Shown here: one piece after another, positions 49,747 through 64,000 of the stretch
Layout of the letters: each line of letters opens with the position of its first letter
Position numbering within the stretch: position 1 is the first letter of the stretch
The notes under the pieces: generated by a model
Databases searched by the model: none
What the model saw: only the letters and a program-made list of their open reading frames with translations
Told to the model about the DNA's origin: nothing
Translations under genes and position numbers: made by a program
From: Gemmatimonas sp.
Lineage (GTDB): Bacteria; Gemmatimonadota; Gemmatimonadetes; Gemmatimonadales; Gemmatimonadaceae
Assembly: GCA_031414535.1 (NCBI GenBank)
Contig: JANNVQ010000030.1
Coordinates: forward strand, 128,001 to 192,000
DNA length: 64,000 nucleotides
Direction: 5' to 3'

Positions 49747-50289
49747 TCAGCCCTGCCCAACCAACGCCGTGCGCAGCTTGCTGATCTTACGCTTGATAGA
49801 CCCATCCATCACCTGGTCGCCCACGCGCACCACCACGCCACCAATGATCCGCTCGTCCACCGTCACGTGCGGCACCACGTTCTTGCCCAGCGCCTTCGAC
49901 AACGCCTGCGCAAGCGACTCCGTGGCCGCCGCATCGTACGGACGCGACACCGTCACACGCGCATGCACGCGGCCCTCGGCCGCATCCAACAGCGAGTGGT
50001 ACTCCGTGGCCACCTGCGGAAACAGCGTCTGACGACGGTTCGAGACCAGCTTCTGCACGAAGAGCACAAACGAGCGCGGCGCCTTGCCTGCAAGCGCCCT
50101 GCCGAGCACCGCGTTCTTCTCGGAGGCGCTCACCTGAGGCGCCGCGAGGAAGGCCTGCAGCGTGCGGTCGCCGCTCACCGCATCGCCAAGCGCGCTGATG
50201 AGCACGCCGTAGCCAGCCTGGTCATTCGCCTTGGTGGCGAGGACCAGCAGGGCCTCAGCGTAATTGCGGGCGATTGAAGCGTCGCGCAT
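49747..50289 (-). CDS. atpH: ATP synthase delta subunit
   Basis: ARNYAEAL, IIGGVVVRVGDQVMDGS. Confidence 0.95.
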   Translation of the reverse strand: MRDASIARNYAEALLVLATKANDQAGYGVLISALGDAVSGDRTLQAFLAAPQVSASEKNAVLGRALAGKAPRSFVLFVQKLVSNRRQTLFPQVATEYHSLLDAAEGRVHARVTVSRPYDAAATESLAQALSKALGKNVVPHVTVDERIIGGVVVRVGDQVMDGSIKRKISKLRTALVGQG

Positions 50290-50859
50290 TTACTTCTTCC
50301 CGAGCGAAGCGAGATAGGTCTCAACAATCTGACGGTCAGCAGCGCCATCGAGCTTCTGCCCAATGAGCTTGCCAGCGCCGGCCAGCGCGAGGTCCACCGC
50401 TTCGCGGCGGAGCTCTTCGATGGCCTTCAGCTTCTCCGTCTCGATTTCCTTGCGAGCGCGGTCGAGCAACTCCGCCTGCTGCGTGCGCGTCTGCTCCAAC
50501 ATCTCCGAGCGCATGGACTCGGCGGTGGCGCGGCCTTCAGCGATGAAACGCTGCGCCTCGTTGCGAGCCGTCTCGATGGCCGCCCTTTGCTCCATAATCA
50601 TCTTGGCGGCTTCGTTGCGATCGCGCTCAGCGGCGGCGATGGCGTCGAGCAGGGCCTGCTCGCGGCCGCGCACGGCAGCGAGGATCGGGCCCCACGCGAA
50701 CTTGCGCAGCAGCAGCAGCGTGATCGTGAAGACCACGATGGTCCACGTAATCAGGCCGTAGTGCGGCTCGAGCAGATTGACCTTGCCACCTTCAGCGGCG
50801 GCAAAAGCCGGCGACGCCGAGAGCGCGAGGAGCGAGAGAGCGGAGAGGAGCTGACGCAT
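50290..50859 (-). CDS. atpF: ATP synthase F0 subunit b
   Basis: W..V.F..LL..L.KFAWGPI..A...R followed by a coiled coil. Confidence 0.93.
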   Translation of the reverse strand: MRQLLSALSLLALSASPAFAAAEGGKVNLLEPHYGLITWTIVVFTITLLLLRKFAWGPILAAVRGREQALLDAIAAAERDRNEAAKMIMEQRAAIETARNEAQRFIAEGRATAESMRSEMLEQTRTQQAELLDRARKEIETEKLKAIEELRREAVDLALAGAGKLIGQKLDGAADRQIVETYLASLGKK

Positions 50860-50982
50860 TGAGAAATCCAATTGGAAATCGGTCACTGCGGACCGACGTT
50901 GGAATACTTGGAACAGCTATTAAGAAAGCGGAGGGTGGCGTGGAGCGGACCGTTTAGCCCGCTCCACACCGGTACAAACAGT

Positions 50983-51258
50983 TTAGAACTTGCCCTGCAC
51001 CGAGAACGCGACGACGATGCCGAACAGCGCAGCGCCCTCGATGAAGGCCGCGAGAATCAGCGCAGCCGTCTGGATCTTACCAGCAGCTTCCGGCTGACGA
51101 GCCATGCCTTCAACTGCCGAGCCGCCAATGCGGCCAATGCCCATGCCAGCGCCGACAACGGCGAGACCGGCGCCGAGCGCGGCACCTGCCATCGCAATGC
51201 CATTGCTGTTGGTGGCGGCCACTGCTGCTTCCTGAAGCATCGGAACGAACGAGATCAT
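50983..51258 (-). CDS. atpE: ATP synthase F0 subunit c
   Basis: GAGMGIG, ARQPE, FIEGAALF (no E-S/T Na+ signature, so probably H+-coupled). Confidence 0.95.
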   Translation of the reverse strand: MISFVPMLQEAAVAATNSNGIAMAGAALGAGLAVVGAGMGIGRIGGSAVEGMARQPEAAGKIQTAALILAAFIEGAALFGIVVAFSVQGKF

Positions 51259-51371
51259 TTGGAGAATCCTGTAGAGTGATGGTCCAGCATTTTCTTACTG
51301 CGCGTTGCTGATGACGCTTCTCGCCGGCGGGCATTTCTGCCCAGCGAGATTCTCCCAGCGCTCGCTGGGAT

Positions 51372-51428
51372 ACTGGACGGAAGACTGATGACGGATGCTT
51401 GAAGCGTCCGTCATCCGCCATCCATCCT
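51372..51428. repeat. palindromic REP-like element, family A, copy 2
   Basis: Reverse complement aggatggatggcggatgacggacgcttcaagcatccgtcatcagtcttccgtccagt aligns without gaps to 16913-16969. Confidence 0.75.
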
Positions 51429-52358
51429 TTAGTGGTGCGCCTCGCGAATCAGCCCAATGAACACGCTCGACAGCAGCGTGAACACGAATGCTTGGAGGAG
51501 CGCCACAAACAACTCGAGAAACATGATGGCCACGGCCATGCCAAGCGGCGCGACGCCAGCCGGGAACCCGAAGCTGAAGAAGAGACCCATCATCGCGAGC
51601 AACACGATGTGGCCGGCCGTCATGTTGGCGAAAAGACGAATGGCCAAGGCGAACGGCTTGGTGAACTTGCCGAGGAGTTCGACCGGCGAGATGATGACAA
51701 ACATCAGGGGCCGCATCACCACCGGCAGATCCTTGTTCCAATAGAAGATCGTGCTGAGGTAACCCCAGCCATTGGCGCGGATGCCGGCGATCTCCACCGT
51801 GATGAACGTGATGAAGGCCAGCGTCGCCGTCACCGAGATGTTGCCGGTAGCGGTACTGCCGTAGGGCACGAGGCCCAACAGGTTCAACGTCAGGATGAAG
51901 AAGAACACCGTGAGCAGGTAGGGCACGAAGCCTTCACCGTGGTGTCCCACGTTGGGGAGGATGACCTCGTTGCGGATATAGAGGATCATCGCTTCGATGG
52001 CATTGGTGGCACCCTTGGGAGCGGTGCCCTGCGCGGCCGTGCGCGCGTGCGCCCGAGCCGTCAACGTCATCACCAGCACGAGCAGCGTCGCGCCAATCAG
52101 CAGAAAGTACACGTGCTTGGTGGGCGAGAGATCAATCTCCAAGCCACCCACGTGGAACTGCAGCGCCTCGTACTTGGGGAGATGAATCTCCTTGAAGAAC
52201 GGCGGCAGAATCCAGGGGACCTCCATATGGTCCCCGTCCGTGATGTGCGGCGTGATGATGTCCACTTTCTCGGCCTGCGCCGGCGTCTCCGAGGCGCCAG
52301 CGAAAGCAGGCGCGGAGACGAAAACGAGGGCGGCGGCCAGTATGCGTGCGATCTTCAT
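51429..52358 (-). CDS. atpB: ATP synthase F0 subunit a
   Basis: NLLGLVP, LAIRLFANMTAGH, ELFVALLQAFVF. Confidence 0.96.
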   Translation of the reverse strand: MKIARILAAALVFVSAPAFAGASETPAQAEKVDIITPHITDGDHMEVPWILPPFFKEIHLPKYEALQFHVGGLEIDLSPTKHVYFLLIGATLLVLVMTLTARAHARTAAQGTAPKGATNAIEAMILYIRNEVILPNVGHHGEGFVPYLLTVFFFILTLNLLGLVPYGSTATGNISVTATLAFITFITVEIAGIRANGWGYLSTIFYWNKDLPVVMRPLMFVIISPVELLGKFTKPFALAIRLFANMTAGHIVLLAMMGLFFSFGFPAGVAPLGMAVAIMFLELFVALLQAFVFTLLSSVFIGLIREAHH

Positions 52359-52702
52359 TGCTTCAGGAAGAGGGGCTCAACGAGCATCGTGACGAACAGG
52401 AATCCCACCAAACTCAGCAGCGCCGGCCCCGACTCAAGCCCCAACGCCTTCGTTCCCACCACCGCGTACAGAATCAGCACCAGCATCCGCAGGAGGGAGC
52501 CGAGTCCCCAGCCCGCAATCGGATTCGTCTTCACAAACGGCCGCGCGATGGCAAATGCGATGATCTGCACAAACAGCGAAATCACTGCCGACGTCCACAC
52601 TGCCCGGGCAATCTCAGGCTCAGGACGCAACGTCGTGATGCCCCAGGCCCCACCCAGCGTGATGAGCGCGGCGATGGCCGCAAACGCCAACGCCTTGTTC
52701 AT
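52355..52702 (-). CDS. AtpI-like 4-TM membrane protein
   Basis: Four hydrophobic segments with LLR motif; position directly before atpB. Confidence 0.65.
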   Translation of the reverse strand: MNKALAFAAIAALITLGGAWGITTLRPEPEIARAVWTSAVISLFVQIIAFAIARPFVKTNPIAGWGLGSLLRMLVLILYAVVGTKALGLESGPALLSLVGFLFVTMLVEPLFLKQ

Positions 52703-53052
52703 CGGTCCTTCCCATCCTTTGCCGACTCAGCGCGTTTTCGAGCCGCTTCCGCTTCTTCTTCCCGCCGTTGGTCGGCCATCAGGCTTCGATAAATCGAGTA
52801 GAAAGCCGCACCGAAGCCCACCAGCACTCCCAGCAGCATGAAAATTGAGTTGGTTCCGAGCTTCCGGTCCAGCCACTGCCCGAGATACAGGAAGAGGAGG
52901 ATCGAGAGCGTGAACTGCATCCCAATTCCGGCGTATTTACCCGCCCCACCCATGGATCCGATGCCGCCCGAGTGCTGAGCCAGCCCCTTCAGCGGATCCA
53001 CATCCCGAGGGCGTGGTCCCGATGGTTCTTCCGGGGGAGAATCAGGCTGCAT
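52699..53052 (-). CDS. atpZ: AtpZ/AtpI family (ATPase gene 1) protein
   Basis: G.QF...I..F..LG.WLD..LGT. Confidence 0.8.
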   Translation of the reverse strand: MQPDSPPEEPSGPRPRDVDPLKGLAQHSGGIGSMGGAGKYAGIGMQFTLSILLFLYLGQWLDRKLGTNSIFMLLGVLVGFGAAFYSIYRSLMADQRREEEAEAARKRAESAKDGKDR

Positions 53053-53073
53053 TTAGCCTCTAAGAATATGAGC

Positions 53074-53091
53074 TTGTGAAATATTTCGCAA
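53074..53091. promoter_or_regulatory. Rex-type operator upstream of the atp operon
   Basis: TTGTGAA-ATAT-TTCGCAA versus the Rex consensus TTGTGAA-N4-TTCACAA (1 mismatch), 21 nt upstream of the atpZ ATG. Confidence 0.65.
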
Positions 53092-53319
53092 GCAAAACCC
53101 CAGCGCGAGAACACGTCCTCGACCGGCCATCGTTGGCAGCCGCCGAAACGTCCCGTGACATTCGAGCAACCGAGGCGTCCACGCATGAGAGCCGCGGAAC
53201 CGAAGAAACCCGAACAGACACAGAAAGAGACTTTTGCACACCTGCCATACTGCCAGCCGCAGATAAGTGATTTGGCGTCAAGTGACGGCGCCGCTTTCAG
53301 TTAGCTGTTACCTAGCTGT

Positions 53320-53348
53320 TTGACGAATCGTCCAACTGTTGATAAGTT
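53320..53348 (+). promoter_or_regulatory. sigma70-like promoter for the BsuPI-like gene
   Basis: TTGACG-17 nt-TAAGTT, ending 28 nt before the ATG at 53377. Confidence 0.5.
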
Positions 53349-53376
53349 ATTCATCACCCCCACTGGTACTGTCTAG

Positions 53377-53844
53377 ATGCGTGACAAGGTCCCATTCACT
53401 CTTGTGTGTATTGCGGTGCTCGCATTTGCGTGCGGACCGCGTCCACGTGGTGATGGAACACCGGATCGCAGCACCGCAAAGCGTAGTAGCGCAACAATTG
53501 ATGCGCGCGCACCACTCGCACCAACGCTTGACGTTGCCGTGAACGACGGTGTGCGGTTCAACTTCGACGTCACCAACGCGGGCGCGCGAAAAGTCGAGTT
53601 GCTTTTCAATGATGGTCGCACGCACGACATCGTCGTGATTGATTCACTCGGCCGCGAAGTATGGCGTTGGAGCGAAGGCCGCATGTTCACGCAGACGGTG
53701 CAGAACAAAGTTCTGCGAGCAGACGATACGATTAGCTTCGCGGAGTCGTGGACCGACGCAACACCAGGTTCCTACGTCGCCGTCGCATCAATGCCCTCGC
53801 GCAACTTCCCAGTCGAACATCGCGTCGCATTCGTCGTACGCTGA
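53377..53844 (+). CDS. lipoprotein with BsuPI (intracellular proteinase inhibitor)-like domain
   Basis: Lipobox AFAC; V.L.F..G..HD.VV.D..G.EVWRWSEGRMFTQ. Confidence 0.75.
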   Translation: MRDKVPFTLVCIAVLAFACGPRPRGDGTPDRSTAKRSSATIDARAPLAPTLDVAVNDGVRFNFDVTNAGARKVELLFNDGRTHDIVVIDSLGREVWRWSEGRMFTQTVQNKVLRADDTISFAESWTDATPGSYVAVASMPSRNFPVEHRVAFVVR

Positions 53845-53869
53845 GCTCGGATTTCACTCGAGAAACTTC

Positions 53870-53898
53870 AAAGGCCGCGCAGGATTGCGCGGCCTTTT
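53870..53898. terminator. bidirectional terminator hairpin
   Basis: aaaggccgcgca-ggat-tgcgcggcctttt between convergent genes. Confidence 0.75.
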
Positions 53899-53901
53899 CG
53901 T

Positions 53902-54633
53902 TTACGCGTCGCTCGGTTCTTCACCGGCAGCAGTAAATCGATATCCGACACCGCGCACGGTGTGAAAGTGCCGCGGTCGCTCGGGCTCTCGCTCAAATCG
54001 CTTGCGCAGCCGCACGATGAAGTTGTCAATCGTGCGTGAGCTCGGGAGCACTTCCCCGCCCCACACGCGCTCCAAGAGATCCTCGCGCCACACCACGCGC
54101 CCATCGCGCTTGGCCAGCTCAGCGAGAATGAGCGCTTCCTTCGGCGTGAGCTGCTGCTCCTCGCCATCGAACGAACGGCCACGGAAACTCGTGAAGTCAA
54201 ATTCGTTACCGCCAAAGTGCAGTAGCTCTCGGCTGCCGAGTAGCGCATCGAAGCGCGTACGCCGACGCACGATGGCGGCCACGCGCAATAGGAGTTCGCG
54301 CAGATGAAACGGCTTGGGCAGGTAATCGTCGCCACCGGCCTCGAGCCCTCGAATGCGATCGTGCGCGCCACCCTTGGCCGTGAGAAACAGCACGGGCGTG
54401 TCATTCCCCTCACGACGCGCCGTCTCGCAGACGGTGAAGCCGTCTAGGCCTGGCAACATCACGTCGAGCACTACCACCGCGTAGTCGTGCGCGCGCATCT
54501 TGGCGAGCGCCGTCGGGCCGTCGCCCACGAGCTCAACGTCGTAGCCCTCGTGCACGAGGTTCTCACGAATCCCGCGCGCGAGATTCGGTTCGTCTTCCAC
54601 CAAGAGCACCTTGGCGCCTGGGACTGCGCTCAC
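53902..54633 (-). CDS. OmpR-family response regulator
   Basis: LVEDE, LDVMLP, FLTA, DDYLPKPF, wHTH RTIDNFI..LRK, TVRGVGYRF. Confidence 0.93.
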   Translation of the reverse strand: MSAVPGAKVLLVEDEPNLARGIRENLVHEGYDVELVGDGPTALAKMRAHDYAVVVLDVMLPGLDGFTVCETARREGNDTPVLFLTAKGGAHDRIRGLEAGGDDYLPKPFHLRELLLRVAAIVRRRTRFDALLGSRELLHFGGNEFDFTSFRGRSFDGEEQQLTPKEALILAELAKRDGRVVWREDLLERVWGGEVLPSSRTIDNFIVRLRKRFEREPERPRHFHTVRGVGYRFTAAGEEPSDA

Positions 54634-55658
54634 GATTGATTCTCCGGCTTGTCGAATGTGGGGCGAGGCCAGCGCACGCTGAAAACTGCGCCGAGTCCGT
54701 GGCCCGCGCTCTGTGCACGCACGCGGCCTCCCGCGTGCGTCACCAAGCGCTCAACGAGGTAGAGGCCCAGTCCGGTGCCCTGCATGCGACCTCGACCATC
54801 GCCCTCAACCCTATAGAACTGCTCGAAGAGCCGCGGCGCTTCCCTGGGCGGAAAGCCAACGCCATCGTCGCTCACCTCGACGAGCACGTCGTGAGCCTCC
54901 ACCTCGCCGTGCACGCGCACCACACCCTCGCGGGGCGAGGCCTTGATCGCATTGTGCAGCAGATTGCGCACCACGGTGCGTACGCCATCGCGGTCGGCGA
55001 GCACGACCAACCCGTGCGGCAACACGGCATCCACACGCACGCCGCACTCAGCGGCGAACTCGCGCAGCTCTTCCGTCATCTCTAGTACGATGTCATCCAG
55101 CGGCACGCGCTCGGGATGCGCTTCGCCGCCGCTCGCCAAGCGCGACGTGTCGAGCGTGTTGGCCACCATGCGCTCCAAGCGACCGAGCTCCACCAGTACG
55201 CGTCGCACCAACTCAGCGCGCTCGGCGGGGCCGGGGTTGCGCAGCGAGAGCGTTTCGACCGACAGACGTAAGCTCGCGAGCGGTGACTTGAACTCGTGCG
55301 ACACGGCCGCGAGAAATTGATCTTGACGGCGCCGTAGCTCCGATTCTTCGCGCAGCGCCTTGAGGACCACGACCATGGCGGCCAGCAACACGCCGAGGAA
55401 GAAGGCCCCTTCCCACGCGTAGCGATTGAGTCGCTGCGCGCGCTCGGTGACCAGCGAGGCAATCTGATCTGGACCCGCACCGTTGGCCACGAGCGCCGCG
55501 GCGAGCCGTTCCGTCATCAGTTGCGTGTACCGCCACTCATCCCATATCCAGAAGGCGAGCTGGGCCGCACAAACGAGCAGCAGGACGATAAAGCCAAGCT
55601 GCACGGAGCGCGTGGAGGGGGTGCGCCCGGTGGGGGCGCTGGAGCGCGATGAAATCAT
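54630..55658 (-). CDS. membrane sensor histidine kinase
   Basis: Two TM segments, SHEFKSPL, NLLHNAIK, DDGVG, GTGLGL. Confidence 0.92.
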   Translation of the reverse strand: MISSRSSAPTGRTPSTRSVQLGFIVLLLVCAAQLAFWIWDEWRYTQLMTERLAAALVANGAGPDQIASLVTERAQRLNRYAWEGAFFLGVLLAAMVVVLKALREESELRRRQDQFLAAVSHEFKSPLASLRLSVETLSLRNPGPAERAELVRRVLVELGRLERMVANTLDTSRLASGGEAHPERVPLDDIVLEMTEELREFAAECGVRVDAVLPHGLVVLADRDGVRTVVRNLLHNAIKASPREGVVRVHGEVEAHDVLVEVSDDGVGFPPREAPRLFEQFYRVEGDGRGRMQGTGLGLYLVERLVTHAGGRVRAQSAGHGLGAVFSVRWPRPTFDKPENQS

Positions 55659-56959
55659 GCACGAAGTCTAGCGCGTAGGTCGCGGGCGAGGTCGGGAGCG
55701 GCAACTTCGAGAAAGTCTGCCGCTGCCTCTGGACCGGCCGCGGCGGAGAGGTCGCGCAGTCCGCGCGACGGGATGTGCGCGAGTTGGTGCGAGAGTCCGT
55801 CCGCCCAGAGGCGCAGCGCTGTGCGCTGTACGGCATCGAGCGAACTCAAGTCGGACTTTAAGGCCCGCTCCACTTCGCGTTGGGCGCTGTCCGCGTAGCG
55901 GCGACGCAGCTCCACAATGGTGGGGTTCACCACGTCGGTCCGTGCGCGTCTGCGACGCTCGTCGAGCGCCGCATCAACAATCGCGCGCGCTTCGCCGAGG
56001 GTCTCCAGTGCCAGCTCTCGCTCCGCTTCGGCGCTGCGCGTGATGCAATCCATCCCTACGTATGGCATGCCTGCCGCCGTGGCGTCCTCAGCGCGTAGCG
56101 AGGCGGGCACGCTCAAGTCCACCACAAGTGGAGGGATGCCCGTGGTGCCGTTCTTGGCGATCCGCAGGCAGTCCGCCTGGGAGAAGAGCGGTTCTTGCGC
56201 TGCGGTGGCAATGAGTAGCGCGGACACCGCATTCGGTGCGCCGCGGAAGTCCTCAAGTGAGCGCAGCCGCGCGTCGGGCGGCGCAATTGCCTCAGCGCGC
56301 GCCAGTGTGCGATTCACCATCACGACTGGGATGCCGCGCTGAGTGAGCGACGCAGCGCAGTGCGCCATCATGGGCGACGCCCCAACGAGCGCAACGGCTC
56401 CTGGCTGCACGGCGAGCCGTTGCGTCACATGCTCGAGGGCGATATCCGCGAGCGACGCTCGACCAATGCGGCCATCGGTAGCGGGGCGAACGCGCTTTGC
56501 AACCTGCAGGGCATCATGCAGTACGGCGCGCAACGCATCGCCGAGGAGTCCCGCTGCCTCGGATTCGGCGGCGGCAGTCTTCAGTTGCCCCGCAATCTCA
56601 CTCTCGCCCGCGCGAGCGGAATCGAGGCCACTGGCCACGAGATACAGATGCTCGATTGCCCCTTCGGCGTCCCACGCACGCAATACCCGATTCGCGGCGA
56701 GCACTCCAAAGAATTTCTGCAGTCGGACGCGGCGCTCGGCGACGCCAATATCGGCTCCGCCCGTAAAGGCGACTTCCACGCGATTGCAGGTCGCCAAGTA
56801 AAGGAGCCCATCCACCTCAAGCGCCGACGCAAGCTCGCGCAACTGCTCCTCGCGCCGTTCCCGCGGAAGCGTGAACTGTGCGAGCAGGTCTGCGCTGGCG
56901 TGTCGCCAAGAGATACCGAGGAGGCCGAGCGAGTTGTGCATCGTGCCGCTGGCGCTCAC
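55655..56959 (-). CDS. hemA: glutamyl-tRNA reductase (divergent)
   Basis: ATCNRVE, HLY.VASGLDS...GE.EI.GQ, NRT..RA, VDLSVP. Confidence 0.85.
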   Translation of the reverse strand: MSASGTMHNSLGLLGISWRHASADLLAQFTLPRERREEQLRELASALEVDGLLYLATCNRVEVAFTGGADIGVAERRVRLQKFFGVLAANRVLRAWDAEGAIEHLYLVASGLDSARAGESEIAGQLKTAAAESEAAGLLGDALRAVLHDALQVAKRVRPATDGRIGRASLADIALEHVTQRLAVQPGAVALVGASPMMAHCAASLTQRGIPVVMVNRTLARAEAIAPPDARLRSLEDFRGAPNAVSALLIATAAQEPLFSQADCLRIAKNGTTGIPPLVVDLSVPASLRAEDATAAGMPYVGMDCITRSAEAERELALETLGEARAIVDAALDERRRRARTDVVNPTIVELRRRYADSAQREVERALKSDLSSLDAVQRTALRLWADGLSHQLAHIPSRGLRDLSAAAGPEAAADFLEVAAPDLARDLRARLRA

Positions 56960-57909
56960 GCTACCGCGAGACGCGCGAGAGCGCGGATGAAGGCGGGATG
57001 CGTATCCACGGCCGCCACGCGAACGAAGCGTTCACCGCCCGCTTCCATGAATGACTCGCGACCGCGATCGCCAATCTCCTCGATGGTTTCCAATCCGTCT
57101 GTCACGAAGCCCGGCGTGACGACGGCTACCGACTTGATGCCGCGCTTCGGCAAGTTCTCGAGCACAGCGTCGGTGGCTGGCGTGAGCCACTTCTCGGGGC
57201 CGAACTTACTCTGGAAGGTGAGCGTGGACTTCTCCACCGGCCACTTGATGGCCTCAAGCAGGGCCGTGGTGGTGTGGCAGCAATCGGAGGAGTAGGAGCG
57301 GCGCTCGTTGCGGTCGTAGCGCTCGGGGATGCCGTGGTACGAGATCACGACGTGCTGTGGCGGCTCGTCGCCGATGGCTTCGAAGAATCGCTCCGCCTGC
57401 GCTTCGATGTAGCCGGGATCGGCGGCGGGAATTACGCGGTCAATGACCGGCACGCCGAGCTCCATCGAAACCGCAGATTCGAATGCGCGCCTGAATGCCG
57501 TGCCTGTGGTGCTTGAGGTGCGCTGCGGGAACAGCGGCACGACGATGAACTTCTCCACACCGGCATCCTTCATCCTCTGCTTCTCGGACGCGATGCTTGG
57601 CTCGCCGTACCGATACGCCGCGCTCACCGTGAAGTGCTCATTGGCCACGGCGCGCACTTCGGCGACGATGCGCTCTGTGGAGGCGCGCAGTGGCGAGCCC
57701 TCGGGCGTCCAGATGGACTCGTAGGCGTGGGCCACCTTCTTGGGCCGCGTGCGCAGGATGATGCCCTGCAGGATTGGCTGCCAGAACCACTTCGGAAAAT
57801 CGATGACGTCGGGGTCGGAGAGGAATTCGTCGAGGAAGCGACGGACGGATTCCGCCGTGGGGGCGTCGGGGGTGCCGAGGTTGACGAGGAGCAGGTGTGG
57901 GCGGGGCAT
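56956..57909 (-). CDS. hemH: ferrochelatase
   Basis: LLVNLGTP, GSPL, PLFPQ, SYHGIP, FQSKFG..WL.P, F.TDGLETIEEI. Confidence 0.95.
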   Translation of the reverse strand: MPRPHLLLVNLGTPDAPTAESVRRFLDEFLSDPDVIDFPKWFWQPILQGIILRTRPKKVAHAYESIWTPEGSPLRASTERIVAEVRAVANEHFTVSAAYRYGEPSIASEKQRMKDAGVEKFIVVPLFPQRTSSTTGTAFRRAFESAVSMELGVPVIDRVIPAADPGYIEAQAERFFEAIGDEPPQHVVISYHGIPERYDRNERRSYSSDCCHTTTALLEAIKWPVEKSTLTFQSKFGPEKWLTPATDAVLENLPKRGIKSVAVVTPGFVTDGLETIEEIGDRGRESFMEAGGERFVRVAAVDTHPAFIRALARLAVA

Positions 57910-58046
57910 GTGTGTAATTGTCGGCACCTGCCGCCAGCGAGTGTCATCGAACTGTCATGGATGACGGGCCCCGTTCTCTTGAGCGTCTGGCGGGGGCTGT
58001 GCGTTAGATTCCCGAACCCCTGCCGCACCCCCATTCGAGGACGCTT

Positions 58047-59219: not shown

Positions 59220-62200
59220 ATGGCGCGCAAACAGGTGAAGCCGGATCGAGTCCGTGTGCGAGTGCTCGGGGCCACCGAGCTCCAGATTGGCTCGCGCCGC
59301 GTGGGAATGAATACGGAGGCGCTATTTGCGCTTGCGCTGTACCTGACGACGCGCGCCGGGGAGCGAATCGCGCGGGAGCAGGTGTTGGAGATTTTCTGGA
59401 CCGACGGTGCGGAGGAGAGCCGCCGCCATGCGATGCGGCAGATGATGTATCGACTGCGGCAGAAGGGTTTGGAGCTTGATGAGGATGGCGAGTTTCTCCG
59501 GTTGGACCCGGCTCATATTGAGAGCGATTTGCGGGATTGCCTGCAGGCGGATTGGCCGGAGCGAGCGGGTGCTGCTGCGGTGGAGGCAGCCCTAGCTTTG
59601 GGTCCCACGTTTAGCGCTCGCCTTGCAGCACCGTTTTTGGATTGGTTTGATGGGGTGCGGGCGGAGGTGGCGGCGCAGCATCGGAAGGCGGCTGCCAAGC
59701 AGATCACGCTTGCCCGGCGCGAGGGGCGCTGGTCGGAGTTGGAGCGCTGGGCGCGTTCCGTCCTGCAATCAGACCCGCTGAATGAGGAGGCGACGTTAGC
59801 GCGGGCTGAGAGCGCAGCGATGTCGGGGTCGAAGGTCGCGGCGTTGGAGATACTGGATACTTATTTGGCGGAGATTGGGCAGGTGGCGCCGGAGTTGGGG
59901 AAGCCGGCGGTGGTGCTGCGGAAGCGGATTGCGGAGAAGAGGGCGGATTGGACTCAACGAGGGCCACGCGAAGTCCGGTTGATTGGGCGGTCCGACCTTA
60001 TGCGGAAGCTGAATGCGTTCGCGGACTCCGTAACGGCCGGAGACTCTAAACACTTAGTCCTCGAGGGTCCACCCGGTAGCGGAAAGTCGCGGTTGCTCGC
60101 AGAGGCCGGTGAATATTCCCAGCTCAGAGGACTAAGAGTGCTGGGTGTTCGAGCAGAGAAAGTCATGGAGGAACATCCTCTGGCGTTTTGCAGAGAAATA
60201 GCAGCGCAGCTTGTCAGAGTACCGGGAGCTGCTGGAGTTTCCCCAGCGACAATGAAGGTGGCATCTAGCCTGGCCGAAGAAGCGGCACAATTTCGGACGG
60301 ATGCAATACGCCCGACACCACAACTATCGGTATCGAGTATTGCGGGAGCATTATCCGGCCTGCTATCTGCTATTGGGTCAGAGCAGCGTTTCGTGCTGGT
60401 TTTGGACGATCTTCAATGGGCAGACGACTTATCTCTGAAGATCCTAGGCGAACTCATTCGCGCTGCCAGCCACAGCCGCGTCGGGATAGTAGCGGGCACC
60501 AGACCCCATTCAAGCGGATTGCAGCTCAACTCCGTAGCGGCGGCGTTCGACCAACTGCATCGAGTCAATCCACTCGTAGACGAGTACGCAACAGATCTTG
60601 CGAACGAGACTGCGAAGTCGCACGGCCGAGTGCTAGACGCCGCCGCGCTGGCGGCAATACTGCGCACTGCAGGAGGTAACCCTCTCTTTGTGAGAGAACT
60701 AACAATTGCTCGAAGCGCATGGCCCCATCGCACATCGCTACCAGATTCGCTATCTCAGATTGTAGAGGATCGGATTCGAACTCTCGACGCTCGGGAGCAG
60801 CGGTTGCTGAGGATTACCGCGCTACTCGGAGACGTCGCAGCGCTTTCGAGAGTACGCGCGACAGCAGCACTCTCACACTCAGAGCTACAGCACTCGCTCG
60901 AGAGACTTGAGGCAGAGTCGATGATTCGCATGTCTGGCGAGCGCACGTTAAGCGTCCACGACTGCTGGTCTGAGGTGTTGCTCCAGCAGACCCCAGCCAC
61001 GTCTCTCGCCGCCTTGGCCCTCGAGTGCGCCGAACGGCTCATTATTGACTCCGCCGCACGATCACACGCCGTCCAGCGAAGAACCGGCCACCTACTCCGA
61101 CTCGCCGGCGAGAACGATCGAGCTCTCGAATACTTCTTGGCAAGCACCGATTCTCTCCATGCAATCGGCTTGCCTCGTGAGGCGAGGGATTCGATGGCCT
61201 CGTACTCTGAGCTAGCCAACCATCCGACGGCCCAGGCACGCCTGAAGTATCGATCCGCTCGAAGTCTGTCTACCCTTGGAAATCCAGAGTCGGCGATTGC
61301 AATCGTGGAAGAGCTTCGGAGACATGGTTGGCTTCGCCAGAATGCGCTCTGGCAGGAGCACCTCGACTCCATTCTCATTCTCGCGGAAGCGTACATCAGA
61401 ACCGAGAATGCGGATCATGCCCCAACAGACGAAGCACTCACACTCGCTTTTCACCCCAACTTGGGCGCAGACGACCAACAGAAGGCATGCCTACTAGGAG
61501 TACGAATCGCGAGCAATCGAGCCGACGCGCGGCTGATGAGGGACTTCGCTGAGCGCTCCAAGGAACTCGACGGGACTGGAGCTAGGAGCTATGCCAGCTG
61601 GATGACGGCCCTCGTTCACGCAACTGAGTGCGGATCTGCAGCAGACATTCTCGATATTATTGACAGCGCCTCCGTAATCGACCGGAGCGACCTCACCGTG
61701 CATCAGACCTACCTAATGCACCGATTCGCTTGCCAAGCCCTCAGAGTCGCGAGGAAGTTTCACAGGTCCTTGGAACACGGCACCGCAGCGCATGACCTAG
61801 CAATCGAACACGGGCTATACCATCAGGCACGAGTCGGGGCGGAGCTGTTGGCCCACGTGTGCCTAGACTATGAAGAGATCACCGCTGCTCGCGAATGGAT
61901 TTCCCGAAGCGAGCACTTGTCGACTGAGGCCGCGGTGGCAGCCACAACAAGATCTCACGACCACGTCAAGGATCGCCTAAGTGTACAGGAGGGGAAATTC
62001 GACGAGGTGTGTGGGCGAATTCTCGCACGGCTACCCTCGTCGAGAGTCGCAGGAACTCCTACGGCACGGCTAGGCGAGCTGTCACTGGCGGCGCTGTGCC
62101 TCTCACAACTTGGACGTCACGAAGAGGCGGAACTCGTGATTGCTGAAACGCTCGAGGCCGTCAGTCCAATCCTTGGTCAATATTCCAGTAACTTCGCAGT

Positions 62201-62366
62201 TGAACTCACCGCGCGTTCGCTTCGACTTATTGGCAATGGCAAGCGAGCTGATCAGCTCTTGCGGGACCACATGCATTCGAGGATTGCGAAGAATCCCCCG
62301 ACGCCGCCCCCGTTCTTCATGCAGCTCATGTCGGTGGAAAACAGCCTATCGCTGAGCGGCAACTAG
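59220..62366 (+). CDS. wHTH-BTAD (SARP-like) + STAND/AAA ATPase + helical-repeat regulator
   Basis: REQVLEIFW, DPLNEEA (BTAD); GPPGSGKS, LVLDDLQWAD, GGNPLFVRE. Confidence 0.85.
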   Translation: MARKQVKPDRVRVRVLGATELQIGSRRVGMNTEALFALALYLTTRAGERIAREQVLEIFWTDGAEESRRHAMRQMMYRLRQKGLELDEDGEFLRLDPAHIESDLRDCLQADWPERAGAAAVEAALALGPTFSARLAAPFLDWFDGVRAEVAAQHRKAAAKQITLARREGRWSELERWARSVLQSDPLNEEATLARAESAAMSGSKVAALEILDTYLAEIGQVAPELGKPAVVLRKRIAEKRADWTQRGPREVRLIGRSDLMRKLNAFADSVTAGDSKHLVLEGPPGSGKSRLLAEAGEYSQLRGLRVLGVRAEKVMEEHPLAFCREIAAQLVRVPGAAGVSPATMKVASSLAEEAAQFRTDAIRPTPQLSVSSIAGALSGLLSAIGSEQRFVLVLDDLQWADDLSLKILGELIRAASHSRVGIVAGTRPHSSGLQLNSVAAAFDQLHRVNPLVDEYATDLANETAKSHGRVLDAAALAAILRTAGGNPLFVRELTIARSAWPHRTSLPDSLSQIVEDRIRTLDAREQRLLRITALLGDVAALSRVRATAALSHSELQHSLERLEAESMIRMSGERTLSVHDCWSEVLLQQTPATSLAALALECAERLIIDSAARSHAVQRRTGHLLRLAGENDRALEYFLASTDSLHAIGLPREARDSMASYSELANHPTAQARLKYRSARSLSTLGNPESAIAIVEELRRHGWLRQNALWQEHLDSILILAEAYIRTENADHAPTDEALTLAFHPNLGADDQQKACLLGVRIASNRADARLMRDFAERSKELDGTGARSYASWMTALVHATECGSAADILDIIDSASVIDRSDLTVHQTYLMHRFACQALRVARKFHRSLEHGTAAHDLAIEHGLYHQARVGAELLAHVCLDYEEITAAREWISRSEHLSTEAAVAATTRSHDHVKDRLSVQEGKFDEVCGRILARLPSSRVAGTPTARLGELSLAALCLSQLGRHEEAELVIAETLEAVSPILGQYSSNFAVELTARSLRLIGNGKRADQLLRDHMHSRIAKNPPTPPPFFMQLMSVENSLSLSGN

Positions 62367-63689
62367 GTATTCACCCGTGTTGCCAATCGCGGGAAACGAT
62401 TCAGCAACATCACTGGCAGGAAACTCCCGCTGGGCGTCAGCGACTGCTCGCTCCAGAGCGCTCCACCCTGAAGCCGAAATCAACTTGGAACATACCTTTG
62501 GGTCGAACTGGCGCCCGCTCTCGCGCTCTAATTCGACTCGGACGTCGTCGAGTGAAAGCCCGGCGCGATAAGGGCGTGACGTCGTCATCGCGTCAATCGT
62601 ATCAGCAAGAGCGATAATTCGCGCCGACAGCGGTATGCTCTCACCGCTGAGCTGGTCTGGGTAGCCTGTTCCGTTCCAAGCCTCGTGATGAGCGCGGACC
62701 GAAGAGACCAAATCCGAAAAATTCGAGACCTTCGCGACTAGCTCAGCACTTCGGATTGGATGGAGCTTCATTCTTCCGAACTCCTCGTCCGAAAGACGAC
62801 CCGGCTTTCGCAGAATCGACGCGAACTCCTCGTGAATTTTGCCGACGTCGTGCAGTAACGCGGCAATCTCGACCCGCTCGACCTGACTTACCGTAAGTCC
62901 CGCCGTCCGCGCCACTTCCCGTGCATACCGCGCGACTCGCTGTGAGTGTCCGGACGTGTAGGGGTCACGCGCCTCGATCGATGCTACCATAAGCTGCAAG
63001 AGTTCTTCGTTGATTTTCTCTAACGCAAACACCATTCGGTACAACTGCCGGATGCCGAGCATCGGAAGCGCTGCCAGGGCGGTCCACATTGGCCCCTTCG
63101 ACACGTACATCAGCGCGAGAAGCACGATGAGGGGCAAGGAGAGTGCGTCGTACACGCCGGAACCCTTAATGCTCTTCGCCCAGTGCCTCAGCGTGTTGGC
63201 GTCAGAGGACGCCGCCACAACCGTGCTTACGGCGAGCTTATTGAGTGCAAAATAGGTCGCGCAGAGCCCGACGAAAGGAAGAATTTGAGAGACTTCGAGG
63301 GTCGCAGACTTTCCACCTAGTCCGAGGTACACAAACAATCCCACGGCGACAGCAAAAGTGTGCTGAGCCACATTGAACGCAATCTTTAGACGGGCTCTGC
63401 GGAGCATTAGTTCGCCCGCGAGTGTGCTCAAAGCGACTGAAATTAATGCGGCTCCGTTGGGGGCAACCAACGCGACGCTTAAGTAGGGCAAGAATACAAT
63501 CGAGCCTGTTGTGGCCTTGCCCACGGGATACGAGAGGACGGCGAACAACACGCCCATTCCAGTAAAGAACAGTGCCGATTGCCAGTCTGTATTGGTCGGC
63601 GATGGCGCAAGGGCAAACACGGCCGCCACGGATATTATGCATCCGGCGGCGACACCCTCTACGACGCGCTCGACTCGGCTCGCTGACAT
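62346..63689 (-). CDS. membrane-bound HD-GYP phosphodiesterase with multi-TM (MASE-like) sensor
   Basis: About 6-7 TM segments; EARDPYTSGHS.RV, LLHDVGK, HHEAWNGTGYP, ARIIALADTIDAMT..RPY. Confidence 0.9.
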   Translation of the reverse strand: MSASRVERVVEGVAAGCIISVAAVFALAPSPTNTDWQSALFFTGMGVLFAVLSYPVGKATTGSIVFLPYLSVALVAPNGAALISVALSTLAGELMLRRARLKIAFNVAQHTFAVAVGLFVYLGLGGKSATLEVSQILPFVGLCATYFALNKLAVSTVVAASSDANTLRHWAKSIKGSGVYDALSLPLIVLLALMYVSKGPMWTALAALPMLGIRQLYRMVFALEKINEELLQLMVASIEARDPYTSGHSQRVARYAREVARTAGLTVSQVERVEIAALLHDVGKIHEEFASILRKPGRLSDEEFGRMKLHPIRSAELVAKVSNFSDLVSSVRAHHEAWNGTGYPDQLSGESIPLSARIIALADTIDAMTTSRPYRAGLSLDDVRVELERESGRQFDPKVCSKLISASGWSALERAVADAQREFPASDVAESFPAIGNTGEYLVAAQR

Positions 63690-63739
63690 GTTGAGTTGTG
63701 CTCTTGGTAGAACCGGAGGACCCCTCGTCCCCAGCTGGA

Positions 63740-63811
63740 CTAGTTCCAGCTATGTGAATCGCCCATCACAAACGCCGCCATTGCAGCAATGATTGACGTG
63801 ATAATAGACAT
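63740..63811 (-). CDS. 23-aa hydrophobic peptide MSIITSIIAAMAAFVMGDSHSWN (not in ORF track)
   Basis: Strong Shine-Dalgarno AGGGAGGTGA 6 nt before the ATG; stop lies 50 nt upstream of the HD-GYP start on the same strand. Confidence 0.65.
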   Translation of the reverse strand: MSIITSIIAAMAAFVMGDSHSWN

Positions 63812-64000
63812 CGAGAATCACCTCCCTTTCGGTGAGATCACTGAATCCGAAGATCCAGCGCCCAGCCTAGGTCGGCTCCGCTCGTCGCACCCTTACGGTG
63901 CACCGCTTGTGTCCTCTCCGCTCAGAGAGAACGAGGGGTACCTCTTCGTGTCCTGTACGTACTGCACTTCCTAAAACAACTACACTTGCCCGTTCACCAA

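Follow-up and report, generated by a model that had tools for sequence, protein, structure and literature searches.

MgrB and SafA are tiny membrane-associated proteins that are co-encoded with a sensor, PhoQ, or act on it. In the Bacillus ComQXPA system, as described in PMC6334282, a small peptide gene lies beside the gene for a membrane receptor, and a polymorphic cassette made up of the peptide and the sensor end, situated between conserved flanks, defines pherotypes. The streptococcal SHP/Rgg and ComS/ComR systems, as presented in PMC4162386, and the Phr/Rap systems use a short hydrophobic propeptide whose C-terminal residues carry specificity in allele-specific pairs, and XIP has a near-terminal Trp in its tail. 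Among the S-components of energy-coupling factor (ECF) transporters (NikM/CbiM, RibU, FolT, and BioY), NikM has a pocket that is reported to be filled by the protein's own 9-residue N-terminal loop (PMC3945884). TM1467 and HdgA carry the Pfam pair MASE9 and HD-GYP, according to the main text of the MASE9 description (10.1101/2021.11.05.467447). Here we analyze a locus that shares features with these systems. It lies in a 64,000-nucleotide stretch of a Gemmatimonas sp. assembly (GCA_031414535.1, contig JANNVQ010000030.1, positions 128,001 to 192,000; hereafter the window), where a gene for a 23-residue peptide precedes a gene for a membrane-bound MASE9-HD-GYP protein. Comparison of homologous loci leads us to argue that the tail of the peptide is probably an allele-specific ligand of the MASE9 domain, which would tune the breakdown of cyclic di-GMP (c-di-GMP).

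A sequence-only reading of the window had proposed that a 72-nt open reading frame (ORF) at 63811-63740 (minus strand) encodes this peptide, that it ends 50 nt before the HD-GYP gene (63689-62346, minus strand, 447 residues), and that the latter overlaps a convergent gene (59220-62366, plus strand, 1048 residues) by 21 nt. We found that the coordinates, the translation, the gap, and the overlap all hold. The same reading had picked out the extended Shine-Dalgarno (SD) sequence of the peptide gene (a 10-nt motif at 63818-63827, minus strand) as the strongest that it noticed in the window. With a score of -19.1 kcal/mol, it is the best before any prefilter-passing ATG in the whole genome; ATGs were prefiltered by motif and scored with a generic anti-SD, the 3' end of the host's 16S rRNA not being assembled. 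The 10-nt string occurs twice in the 3.7-Mb genome. Across homologues, the median SD score is -16.8 for peptide genes and -9.4 for HD-GYP genes (-2.1 for the HD-GYP gene of the window). The homologue set comprises 110 loci, duplicates included, of which 100 have at least 160 nt of upstream sequence, and it contains 84 unique peptide genes. When small ORFs were sought upstream of the homologous HD-GYP genes, an SD-led ORF of 16-35 codons was found in 98 of the 100 loci; in the two loci without a scored ORF, either the SD is a variant and the peptide is visible (L051) or the upstream region has been replaced (L053).

The peptide had been expected to end in Gly, a short spacer, and Trp. The Trp is indeed conserved near the end, but the tail reads [AGS]-[DE]-x-x-x-W-x, with Gly as one of three common residues before the acidic position. 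Among the 84 unique genes, Trp stands at -2 in 79, Asp or Glu at -6 in 70, and Ala, Gly, or Ser at -7 in 76, and Trp is the final residue in 9. All four Asp/Glu codons are used at -6, the last residue varies, and all three stop codons occur. The N-terminal part is helical, as had been proposed, but across homologues the helix is amphipathic rather than plainly hydrophobic: the hydrophobic moment of 69 peptides peaks at 100 degrees (0.305, versus 0.169 in shuffles and a maximum of 0.203 in 500 of them). The window peptide has one Trp and no Lys or Arg, and is without net positive charge. Small residues at -7 and -9 and a single SBP_bac_5 gene in the genome would be compatible with a tail that is exported, processed, and taken up again, but no more than that. 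We conclude from the sequences that the peptide gene is genuine, conserved, and under protein-level constraint.

Some loci deviate from this pattern. The peptides of L030 and L100 have no Trp and lie at a long distance from the HD-GYP start, and may be decaying copies. A subtype (L111, L118, L140, and L151-L153) has a Trp that lies approximately 5-7 residues before the terminus and either replaces the near-terminal one or accompanies it. In L261:5994-7239 (G057), frameshifted HD-GYP pieces stand behind an intact leader and peptide, through either decay or sequencing error. The locus, peptide, and leader counts include three loci from genomes flagged as unpublished (L015 from G033, L016 from G034, and L024 from G007), two of which (L016 and L024) are also in alignment A1. 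L077 and L119 repeat L016, and other genomes with this flag enter the tallies of MASE9 and of the upstream protein UP270 given below; no main conclusion depends solely on such genomes.

The evidence for a specific partner comes from co-variation between MASE9 and the six-residue tail (Asp18-Asn23, codons at 63743-63760, minus strand), which conservation and co-variation together mark as the proposed specificity element. We found 33 close pairs of loci, dropped three that were near-identical, and kept 30 disjoint pairs. In these, MASE9 identity falls as tail changes accumulate (rho -0.62, p 3e-4), whereas rho is -0.09 for the HD domain, -0.20 for the RNA leader, and -0.09 for UP270; the value for changes in the N-terminal part of the peptide against MASE9 identity is -0.34. 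In the 22 pairs that also have the convergent regulator, whose loci overlap those of the 30-pair set, the correlation between tail and MASE9 is -0.89, versus -0.17 for HD, -0.03 for the BTAD end of the regulator, -0.01 for its STAND part, and -0.33 for its TPR part (p 0.13). Where two loci have the same tail, MASE9 identity lags HD identity by at most 0.06 in six of seven pairs. In four same-tail pairs, MASE9 is 78-92% identical despite a fourfold-site difference of 0.60-0.73, and thus recent shared ancestry alone is insufficient to explain its retention; most pairs, five of the seven with the same tail among them, are close to saturation at fourfold sites. The co-variation and fourfold-site sets include the pairs L024/L028 and L233/L237 (G197), which carry the unpublished flag.

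The idea of a variable peptide-receptor module was borne out in the form of a swapped cassette with a crossover inside the peptide ORF. In G390, which has two copies, the flanks are 92-100% identical per 250 nt, the peptide and HD-GYP genes 73-85%, and the STAND/TPR region 50-62%. We examined eight same-assembly pairs, five of which lack a second leader; in all three pairs with both leaders, the leader and first codons are shared and divergence begins at +18, +33, and +50 nt of the ORF (the +33 pair depends on the unpublished-flagged G033, L069 being letter-identical to L015). Assembly breaks fall in the same place. Of 80 contigs, 21 stop in the 300 nt that precede the HD-GYP start, and no other bin on the upstream side holds more than 2 such ends; 10 of 14 contigs chosen for ending nearby end inside the peptide ORF; and by hand count of 150 of 218 UP270 matches, a contig ends within 450 nt downstream for 12 of 79 minus-strand matches, versus none upstream for 71 plus-strand matches. 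The contig of L263 (G223:C46) ends at approximately residue 265 of the regulator, near the point in the window (approximately 59955) where GC content drops, and the two together suggest the other edge of the swapped block. We conclude, from these alignments, that the peptide is exchanged between strains together with its MASE9 allele by crossover within the ORF.

The receptor candidate has two parts. The 447-residue protein matches MASE9 (PF20972) with 35.3 bits against a curated cut-off of 24.3, and HD_5 with an E value of 1.2e-32; the MASE9 membrane domain (residues ~1-215) is encoded at 63045-63689 and diverges fast, and the coiled coil and HD-GYP domain are encoded at 62346-63044 (both minus strand). 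Residues H248, H280-D281, H310, H334-H335-E336, G342-Y343-P344, D363, R372, Y374, and R375 are invariant in 117 sequences, and the window protein has all of the HD, HHE, GYP, and RxYR metal and substrate motifs of HD-GYP enzymes. The model of this domain aligns with 4mcw (Z 25.1, root-mean-square deviation [rmsd] 2.1, 193 residues aligned), and 4r8z is also alike. The HD-GYP domain is thus a predicted c-di-GMP phosphodiesterase with its motifs intact.

The structure model of the whole protein (predicted local distance difference test score [pLDDT] 93) predicts for MASE9 an ECF S-component fold with a six-helix core. The best matches of the MASE9 model are NikM (Z 13.2, rmsd 3.7 Å, 190 aligned), RibU (13.0, 3.1 Å, 159), the folate S-component (12.7, 3.0 Å, 154), and BioY (12.4, 3.2 Å, 167), and Foldseek also lists RibU (E 0.055). 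The main text of the MASE9 description predicts ligand binding within the membrane and names no ligand; the word "peptide" is absent from it, and the upstream ORF, the RNA, and the fold are not described there (10.1101/2021.11.05.467447). Conserved polar residues of MASE9 are N106, Q109, N150, and D181. On the helix mapping that we infer from the model, these residues sit on helices lining the S-component pocket, whose geometry we take to be that of S-components in general. Lys and Arg residues number 1.4-3.3 per loop in the N-terminal end, L1, L3, L5, and the segment that follows the final helix, which puts these on one side of the membrane, and 0.03-0.6 in L0, L2, and L6, which would lie on the other; L4 is ambiguous. 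By the positive-inside rule, the pocket face would therefore be cytoplasmic, and on loop charge alone it may be so. Co-folding of the L013 peptide with its own MASE9 scored 0.54, versus 0.00 for the best control, with runs agreeing in at least 82% of contacts and a partner pLDDT of at least 67; this is weak support. The mark used is one that 116 of 157 solved pairs and 2 of 215 mismatched ones attain, 18 of the 157 and both mismatches lying at 0.60 or under.

Together, these results suggest the following mechanism. The amphipathic N-terminal part (a segment resembling a signal peptide in monoderm phyla) would carry the peptide to the inner membrane, and the Trp-containing tail, either attached or cleaved after the small residue at -7, would dock in the S-component-type pocket of MASE9. 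Docking would shift the last membrane helix and the coiled coil, switch the HD-GYP domain, and alter c-di-GMP. Matched pairs of tail and pocket would form pherotype-like specificity groups, and the RNA leader described below would probably set expression of the unit, as a c-di-GMP-II riboswitch does in some Chloroflexota loci. As to the route of the tail, we slightly and tentatively prefer that it is released and returns to a cytoplasm-facing pocket as a cell-to-cell signal of the Phr/SHP kind; that the peptide is a membrane-bound subunit that is never exported seems somewhat less likely. The sequence-only reading had allowed for a secreted ligand; sensing of it from outside may not apply, given the pocket face that loop charges suggest. 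The proposal that the peptide is the ligand of the HD-GYP membrane sensor thus gains from the conserved peptide, the co-varying MASE9, and the weakly supportive co-fold, but the possible link to the STAND regulator that had been attached to it is not supported.

Several points weigh against the tail acting as a ligand of MASE9. The co-variation holds pairwise, but over the whole set it is flat or marginal in a partial Mantel test (42 modules; r 0.013 for the six-residue tail and MASE9, and 0.09-0.12 for the last 14 residues). Leader identity tracks MASE9 identity too (rho 0.49, p 0.006), tail changes also lean on UP270 in the 22 pairs (rho -0.42, p 0.05), and because the tail and MASE9 are only 50 nt apart, linkage contributes to the correlation. 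L148 and L183 have the same tail and a much diverged MASE9, and the one-change pairs L004/L046 and L052/L059 do not have a much diverged MASE9. Several peptides of family f2 and of Bacillota have no Trp. A Z score of ~13 is borderline for helical bundles, and the pocket orientation depends only on loop charges, among which that of L4 is ambiguous. The co-fold that the sequence-only reading had called for came out in favor of the pair, but weakly, for a homologous pair with an unusually long peptide, and gave no contacts; moreover, helices of the amphipathic type can adhere to membrane domains of any kind. Finally, the contig breaks may also stem from k-mers shared between species, G-rich sequence, or sequencing artefacts.

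The peptide ORF is enclosed in a conserved RNA structure. A tract ~130 nt upstream of the peptide start (5' arm, 63924-63944, minus strand) pairs with a tract directly behind the stop codon (3' arm, 63716-63737, minus strand). Over 73 loci, the medians for this long-range helix are 17 bp and -31.6 kcal/mol, a level reached by none of 292 coding-region controls. The mean pairing energy of cognate arms is -31.0 versus -24.2 for swapped arms, and the cognate arm ranks first in 9 of the 73 loci and among the top five in 42, with L006 (no 5' arm) and L008 and L080 (mis-anchored) all kept in; an earlier duplex test with long segments separated the classes poorly (cognate -40.3, non-cognate -35.2, coding sequence -35.0) and was replaced by these anchored arms. 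In the 48-row alignment, 90.1% of cells pair, and there are 27 two-sided changes versus 12.8 in shuffles (0 of 500 reached this); two further covariation measures were not above shuffles, and the structure came from the same alignment. The leader region of the window folds with a z score of -3.7. The arms of Bacillota and Chloroflexota loci are unrelated in sequence, yet their pairing beats the control in 21 of 23 loci. AGCG[GA] motifs are enriched approximately six-fold in the 130-nt leader (3.3 versus 0.54 in shuffles; 2.7 versus 0.41 in other phyla), and three AGCGG copies lie at 63922-63918, 63907-63903, and 63882-63878 of the window (span 63878-63922, minus strand). The repeats (63922-63878 and homologues) can be read as (G/T/A)AG triplets two bases apart, a pattern like that of the target of the TRAP attenuation protein.

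Rfam gave no match in 17 Gemmatimonadaceae loci and none at E<=10 in 63600-64000 of the window; on 40 other sources, it found only one tRNA and c-di-GMP-II riboswitches upstream of the peptide gene in four Chloroflexota loci (L402, L404, L405, and L413), which ties the unit to c-di-GMP feedback in those loci. L402, L404, L405, and L406 have an extra short ORF directly before the peptide gene, and its last three residues are identical to those of the peptide. Among RNA runs, only ones with a small share of relatives turned up. Contigs from two studies, 270, 240, and 214 nt long, map to 63712-63965; these are contigs with loose ends, and absence of cover elsewhere carries no weight, so we do not count them as proof of expression. 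The arms are not the ends of invertible DNA, because they occur in one orientation in 98 of 100 loci and contain many U-G pairs.

This structure raises the alternative that the ORF is a cis-acting leader and its product incidental: a ribosome on the ORF, perhaps slowed at Trp or arrested at the stop codon, would open the helix and license translation of HD-GYP. The geometry fits, in that the 3' arm begins -3 to +6 nt from where the stop codon ends (58 of 73 loci), the median distance from the end of the arm to the HD-GYP start is 13 nt, the HD-GYP genes have the weaker SDs, and an alternative local hairpin (63932-63911) overlaps the 3' half of the 5' arm. However, the last residue and the stop codon vary freely; the 3' arm, read by eye, is C-rich in several family f2 loci (L248, L257, and L260) and so is not an SD there; blocking a region that reaches from 15 nt ahead of the stop codon to 10 nt beyond it leaves the core of the window helix closed; and the start region of the window gene is mostly unpaired anyway. 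Trp attenuators and TnaC-type leaders serve Trp metabolism and depend on a fixed pair of residue and stop codon for arrest. A leader of this type was rejected here, the target being a predicted phosphodiesterase and the last residue and stop being variable. Amphipathic periodicity, an acidic residue at -6 with free codon choice, and co-variation of the tail with MASE9 require a function of the product, and we consider a purely cis-acting leader improbable, although such an effect can act in addition to binding of the tail by MASE9.

A second alternative is that the convergent regulator responds to the peptide as its pheromone, in the way that ComR responds to XIP. The sequence-only reading had labeled this protein wHTH-BTAD-AAA (winged helix-turn-helix, BTAD, AAA ATPase) and had suggested a possible link to the peptide. 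The AAA_16 match is firm (E 2.9e-20), and Walker A and B are legible in the translation, as in STAND-type ATPases, but the winged helix-turn-helix and TPR matches are weak and Pfam BTAD has no direct match; the BTAD label comes solely from a paralogue that is BTAD-positive and to which residues 10-235 are homologous (E 1.7e-11). A search of solved structures by sequence found no relative. Of 118 Gemmatimonadota-type loci whose sequence extends far enough, 98 have the regulator next to the unit, some of the misses perhaps being too divergent to detect; its STAND/TPR part is the most divergent stretch of the swapped block, and the genome has one oligopeptide-type binding protein (SBP_bac_5); ComR alleles, as reported in PMC4162386, differ C-terminally along with their XIP. 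Against this, STAND and TPR identity do not follow the tail, and the same tail occurs with TPR parts at 37-39% identity, so that the frequent TPR-like neighbor does not co-vary as the receptors of RRNPP and ComRS systems do. The regulator is also dispensable: G110 keeps the RNA, peptide, and HD-GYP gene with the regulator replaced, and none of four tested Bacillota genomes carrying the module has a BTAD match. We regard a pheromone role toward this protein as very unlikely. In G110 (L264:4149-10694), unrelated convergent genes, one of 1044 residues, occupy the regulator's place. The window genome has six other BTAD matches (G000 C14, C17, C29, C32, and C38), three of them in open frames of more than 1000 residues. 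Apparent losses of the cassette in G223, G005, G026, G053, and G056 proved to be contig ends.

Type I toxin mRNAs and phenol-soluble modulins bear a likeness to the fold-back leader and the amphipathic peptide, respectively. Type I systems are marked by an antisense RNA and by toxicity; of their features, the analysis covered the 5'-3' fold-back. A toxin/immunity or kin-attack system, in which a membrane-active peptide has its mRNA silenced by the 5'-3' fold-back and MASE9 serves as immunity or alarm sensor, would suit the amphipathic helix, the closing helix, and the allele polymorphism within populations, but the leader is single-copy, the locus is a fixed core one, monoderm homologues resemble signal peptides with a short tail, and specificity resides in the polar tail and not in the helix (rho -0.62 versus -0.34), which makes it highly improbable.

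The module that the sequence-only reading described lacked the RNA helix, the allele swap, the co-variation of the tail with MASE9, and a conserved upstream gene. This gene, the first of a trio, encodes the 270-residue protein UP270 (G000:C30:192011-192823, just past the window end), and only the leader and peptide lie between it and HD-GYP. Its model comprises a small alpha/beta domain and a LeuA-type allosteric domain (3f6g, Z 10.2, rmsd 2.9, 110 aligned); Pfam LeuA_dimer is found in 4 of 96 members, and weaker Foldseek matches are double-stranded-RNA-binding domains. UP270 is a candidate leader-binding protein. ESM Atlas returned only unnamed clusters for UP270, and NCBIfam has no family for it, the window peptide, or two Bacillota peptides. 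In most Gemmatimonadales loci, the unit follows gcvT, a gene for a response regulator of the sigma-54 NtrC type, and UP270 (G000:C30:192011-195683; the first two names were read off translations), and the response regulator could drive it.

The trio of UP270, peptide, and MASE9-HD-GYP recurs in Gemmatimonadota, Bacillota, Chloroflexota, and Actinomycetota. MASE9 is present in 91 of 201 Gemmatimonadota genomes, and in 35 of 101, 20 of 101, and 38 of 81 genomes in sets centered on Moorellaceae, Thermoflexus, and Solincola, respectively; it also occurs in the control rows Thermus thermophilus and Thermotoga maritima, and its Pfam model gave no match in 26 Streptomyces-genus genomes. When the 1.5-kb flank was examined, a UP270 homologue turned up at 20 of 30 loci in Bacillota, 2 of 21 in Chloroflexota, and 9 of 25 in Actinomycetota. 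The peptide was found in 27 of 29 loci with upstream DNA in a phylum-wide Gemmatimonadota set, mostly of other families (some without Trp), upstream of 21 of 26 Bacillota MASE9-HD-GYP genes but none of four other MASE9 proteins (an example is MKLWKVLTAIVTLILAGGANFRW, from L371), in 11 of 21 Chloroflexota loci, and in 14 of 15 high-scoring Actinomycetota loci as against one among 10 low-scoring ones. Read by eye, the peptides of the other phyla look like a basic N-terminal end, a hydrophobic core, a small-residue stretch, and a tail of 4-6 residues. Two Actinomycetota loci (L433 and L441, the latter from G646 and flagged unpublished) have tandem identical peptide genes before the MASE9 protein. 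Among the motif-scan matches listed (at least 120 stretches), those outside Gemmatimonadota-type loci were mostly chance, without peptide or HD-GYP. An alignment search aimed at other phyla returned mostly Gemmatimonadota, and short contigs labeled with other taxa were excluded from the counts for other phyla; cassettes on such contigs (L044, L045, L090, L098, L115, L218, L229, L294, and others) are probably a mis-binned low-GC block.

The window locus, whose relatives are in Gemmatimonadaceae, is compositionally distinct. The AT-rich block noted earlier exists (59961-63830 has 57.6% GC versus 63.8%, a value as low as that occurring in 0.34% of 3506 equal-sized windows), but its edge sits inside the regulator gene: codons 1-245 have 64.4% GC, and the low-GC, fast-diverging part begins near 59955, at about codon 246. 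A scan gave no promoter-like sites and one terminator-like site, which is intragenic and at chance level. Read off ORF translations, 49747-57927 of the window encodes subunits of an ATP synthase and a two-component pair, along with products that resemble haem-synthesis proteins.

A literature search, which covers subscription journals poorly, found no published description of the module. If the proposed role of the tail is correct, it names a ligand for the orphan sensor family MASE9, shows that the fold of ECF S-components has been adapted to peptide reception, joins peptide signaling to c-di-GMP turnover with neither kinase nor transcription factor in between, places pherotype-like peptide communication in Gemmatimonadota, and adds an RNA motif common to several phyla; its predictions are cheap to test. 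The fullest version, a tentative possibility, is a new form of cell-to-cell peptide signaling spread over several phyla, diderm Gemmatimonadota among them. In it, a receptor of S-component fold on a c-di-GMP phosphodiesterase would read a hexapeptide with a Trp tail, recombination within the peptide gene would generate pherotypes, and an RNA element, made up of the closing helix and the AGCGG repeats and read by UP270 or c-di-GMP, would close an autoinduction loop.

Such a module would differ from each of its closest relatives. The analogy with ComX drawn by the sequence-only reading breaks down at the adjacent modifying enzyme and the kinase, both missing at the locus. In ComQXPA, the receptor is the histidine kinase ComP, acting with the regulator ComA, and the modifying enzyme ComQ is encoded alongside, whereas here MASE9-HD-GYP adjoins the peptide gene, no such enzyme lies between UP270 and HD-GYP (the scope of the comparison being the locus, as no genome-wide search for ComQ was made), and the precursor is only 16-35 residues long and enclosed in a conserved RNA. 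The receptors of SHP/Rgg and ComRS are soluble TPR proteins; here a membrane enzyme co-varies with the peptide, the output would be c-di-GMP, and the phylum is diderm. The WW motif and net positive charge by which PMC4162386 characterizes type II ComS are absent from the window peptide. S-components, which operate with an EcfAA'T module in substrate transport, differ from MASE9, which is fused to an enzyme, has an extra C-terminal membrane helix, and has a pocket face that is apparently cytoplasmic by loop charge. What sets the locus apart from MgrB and SafA is a tail matched to the allele, a cassette that is swapped, and a leader RNA; the peptides of Gemmatimonadota, moreover, are amphipathic and can be only 16 residues long. 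By analogy, then, the module appears to work like ComQXP in its cassette and like SHP/ComS in its propeptide, and is a member of neither.

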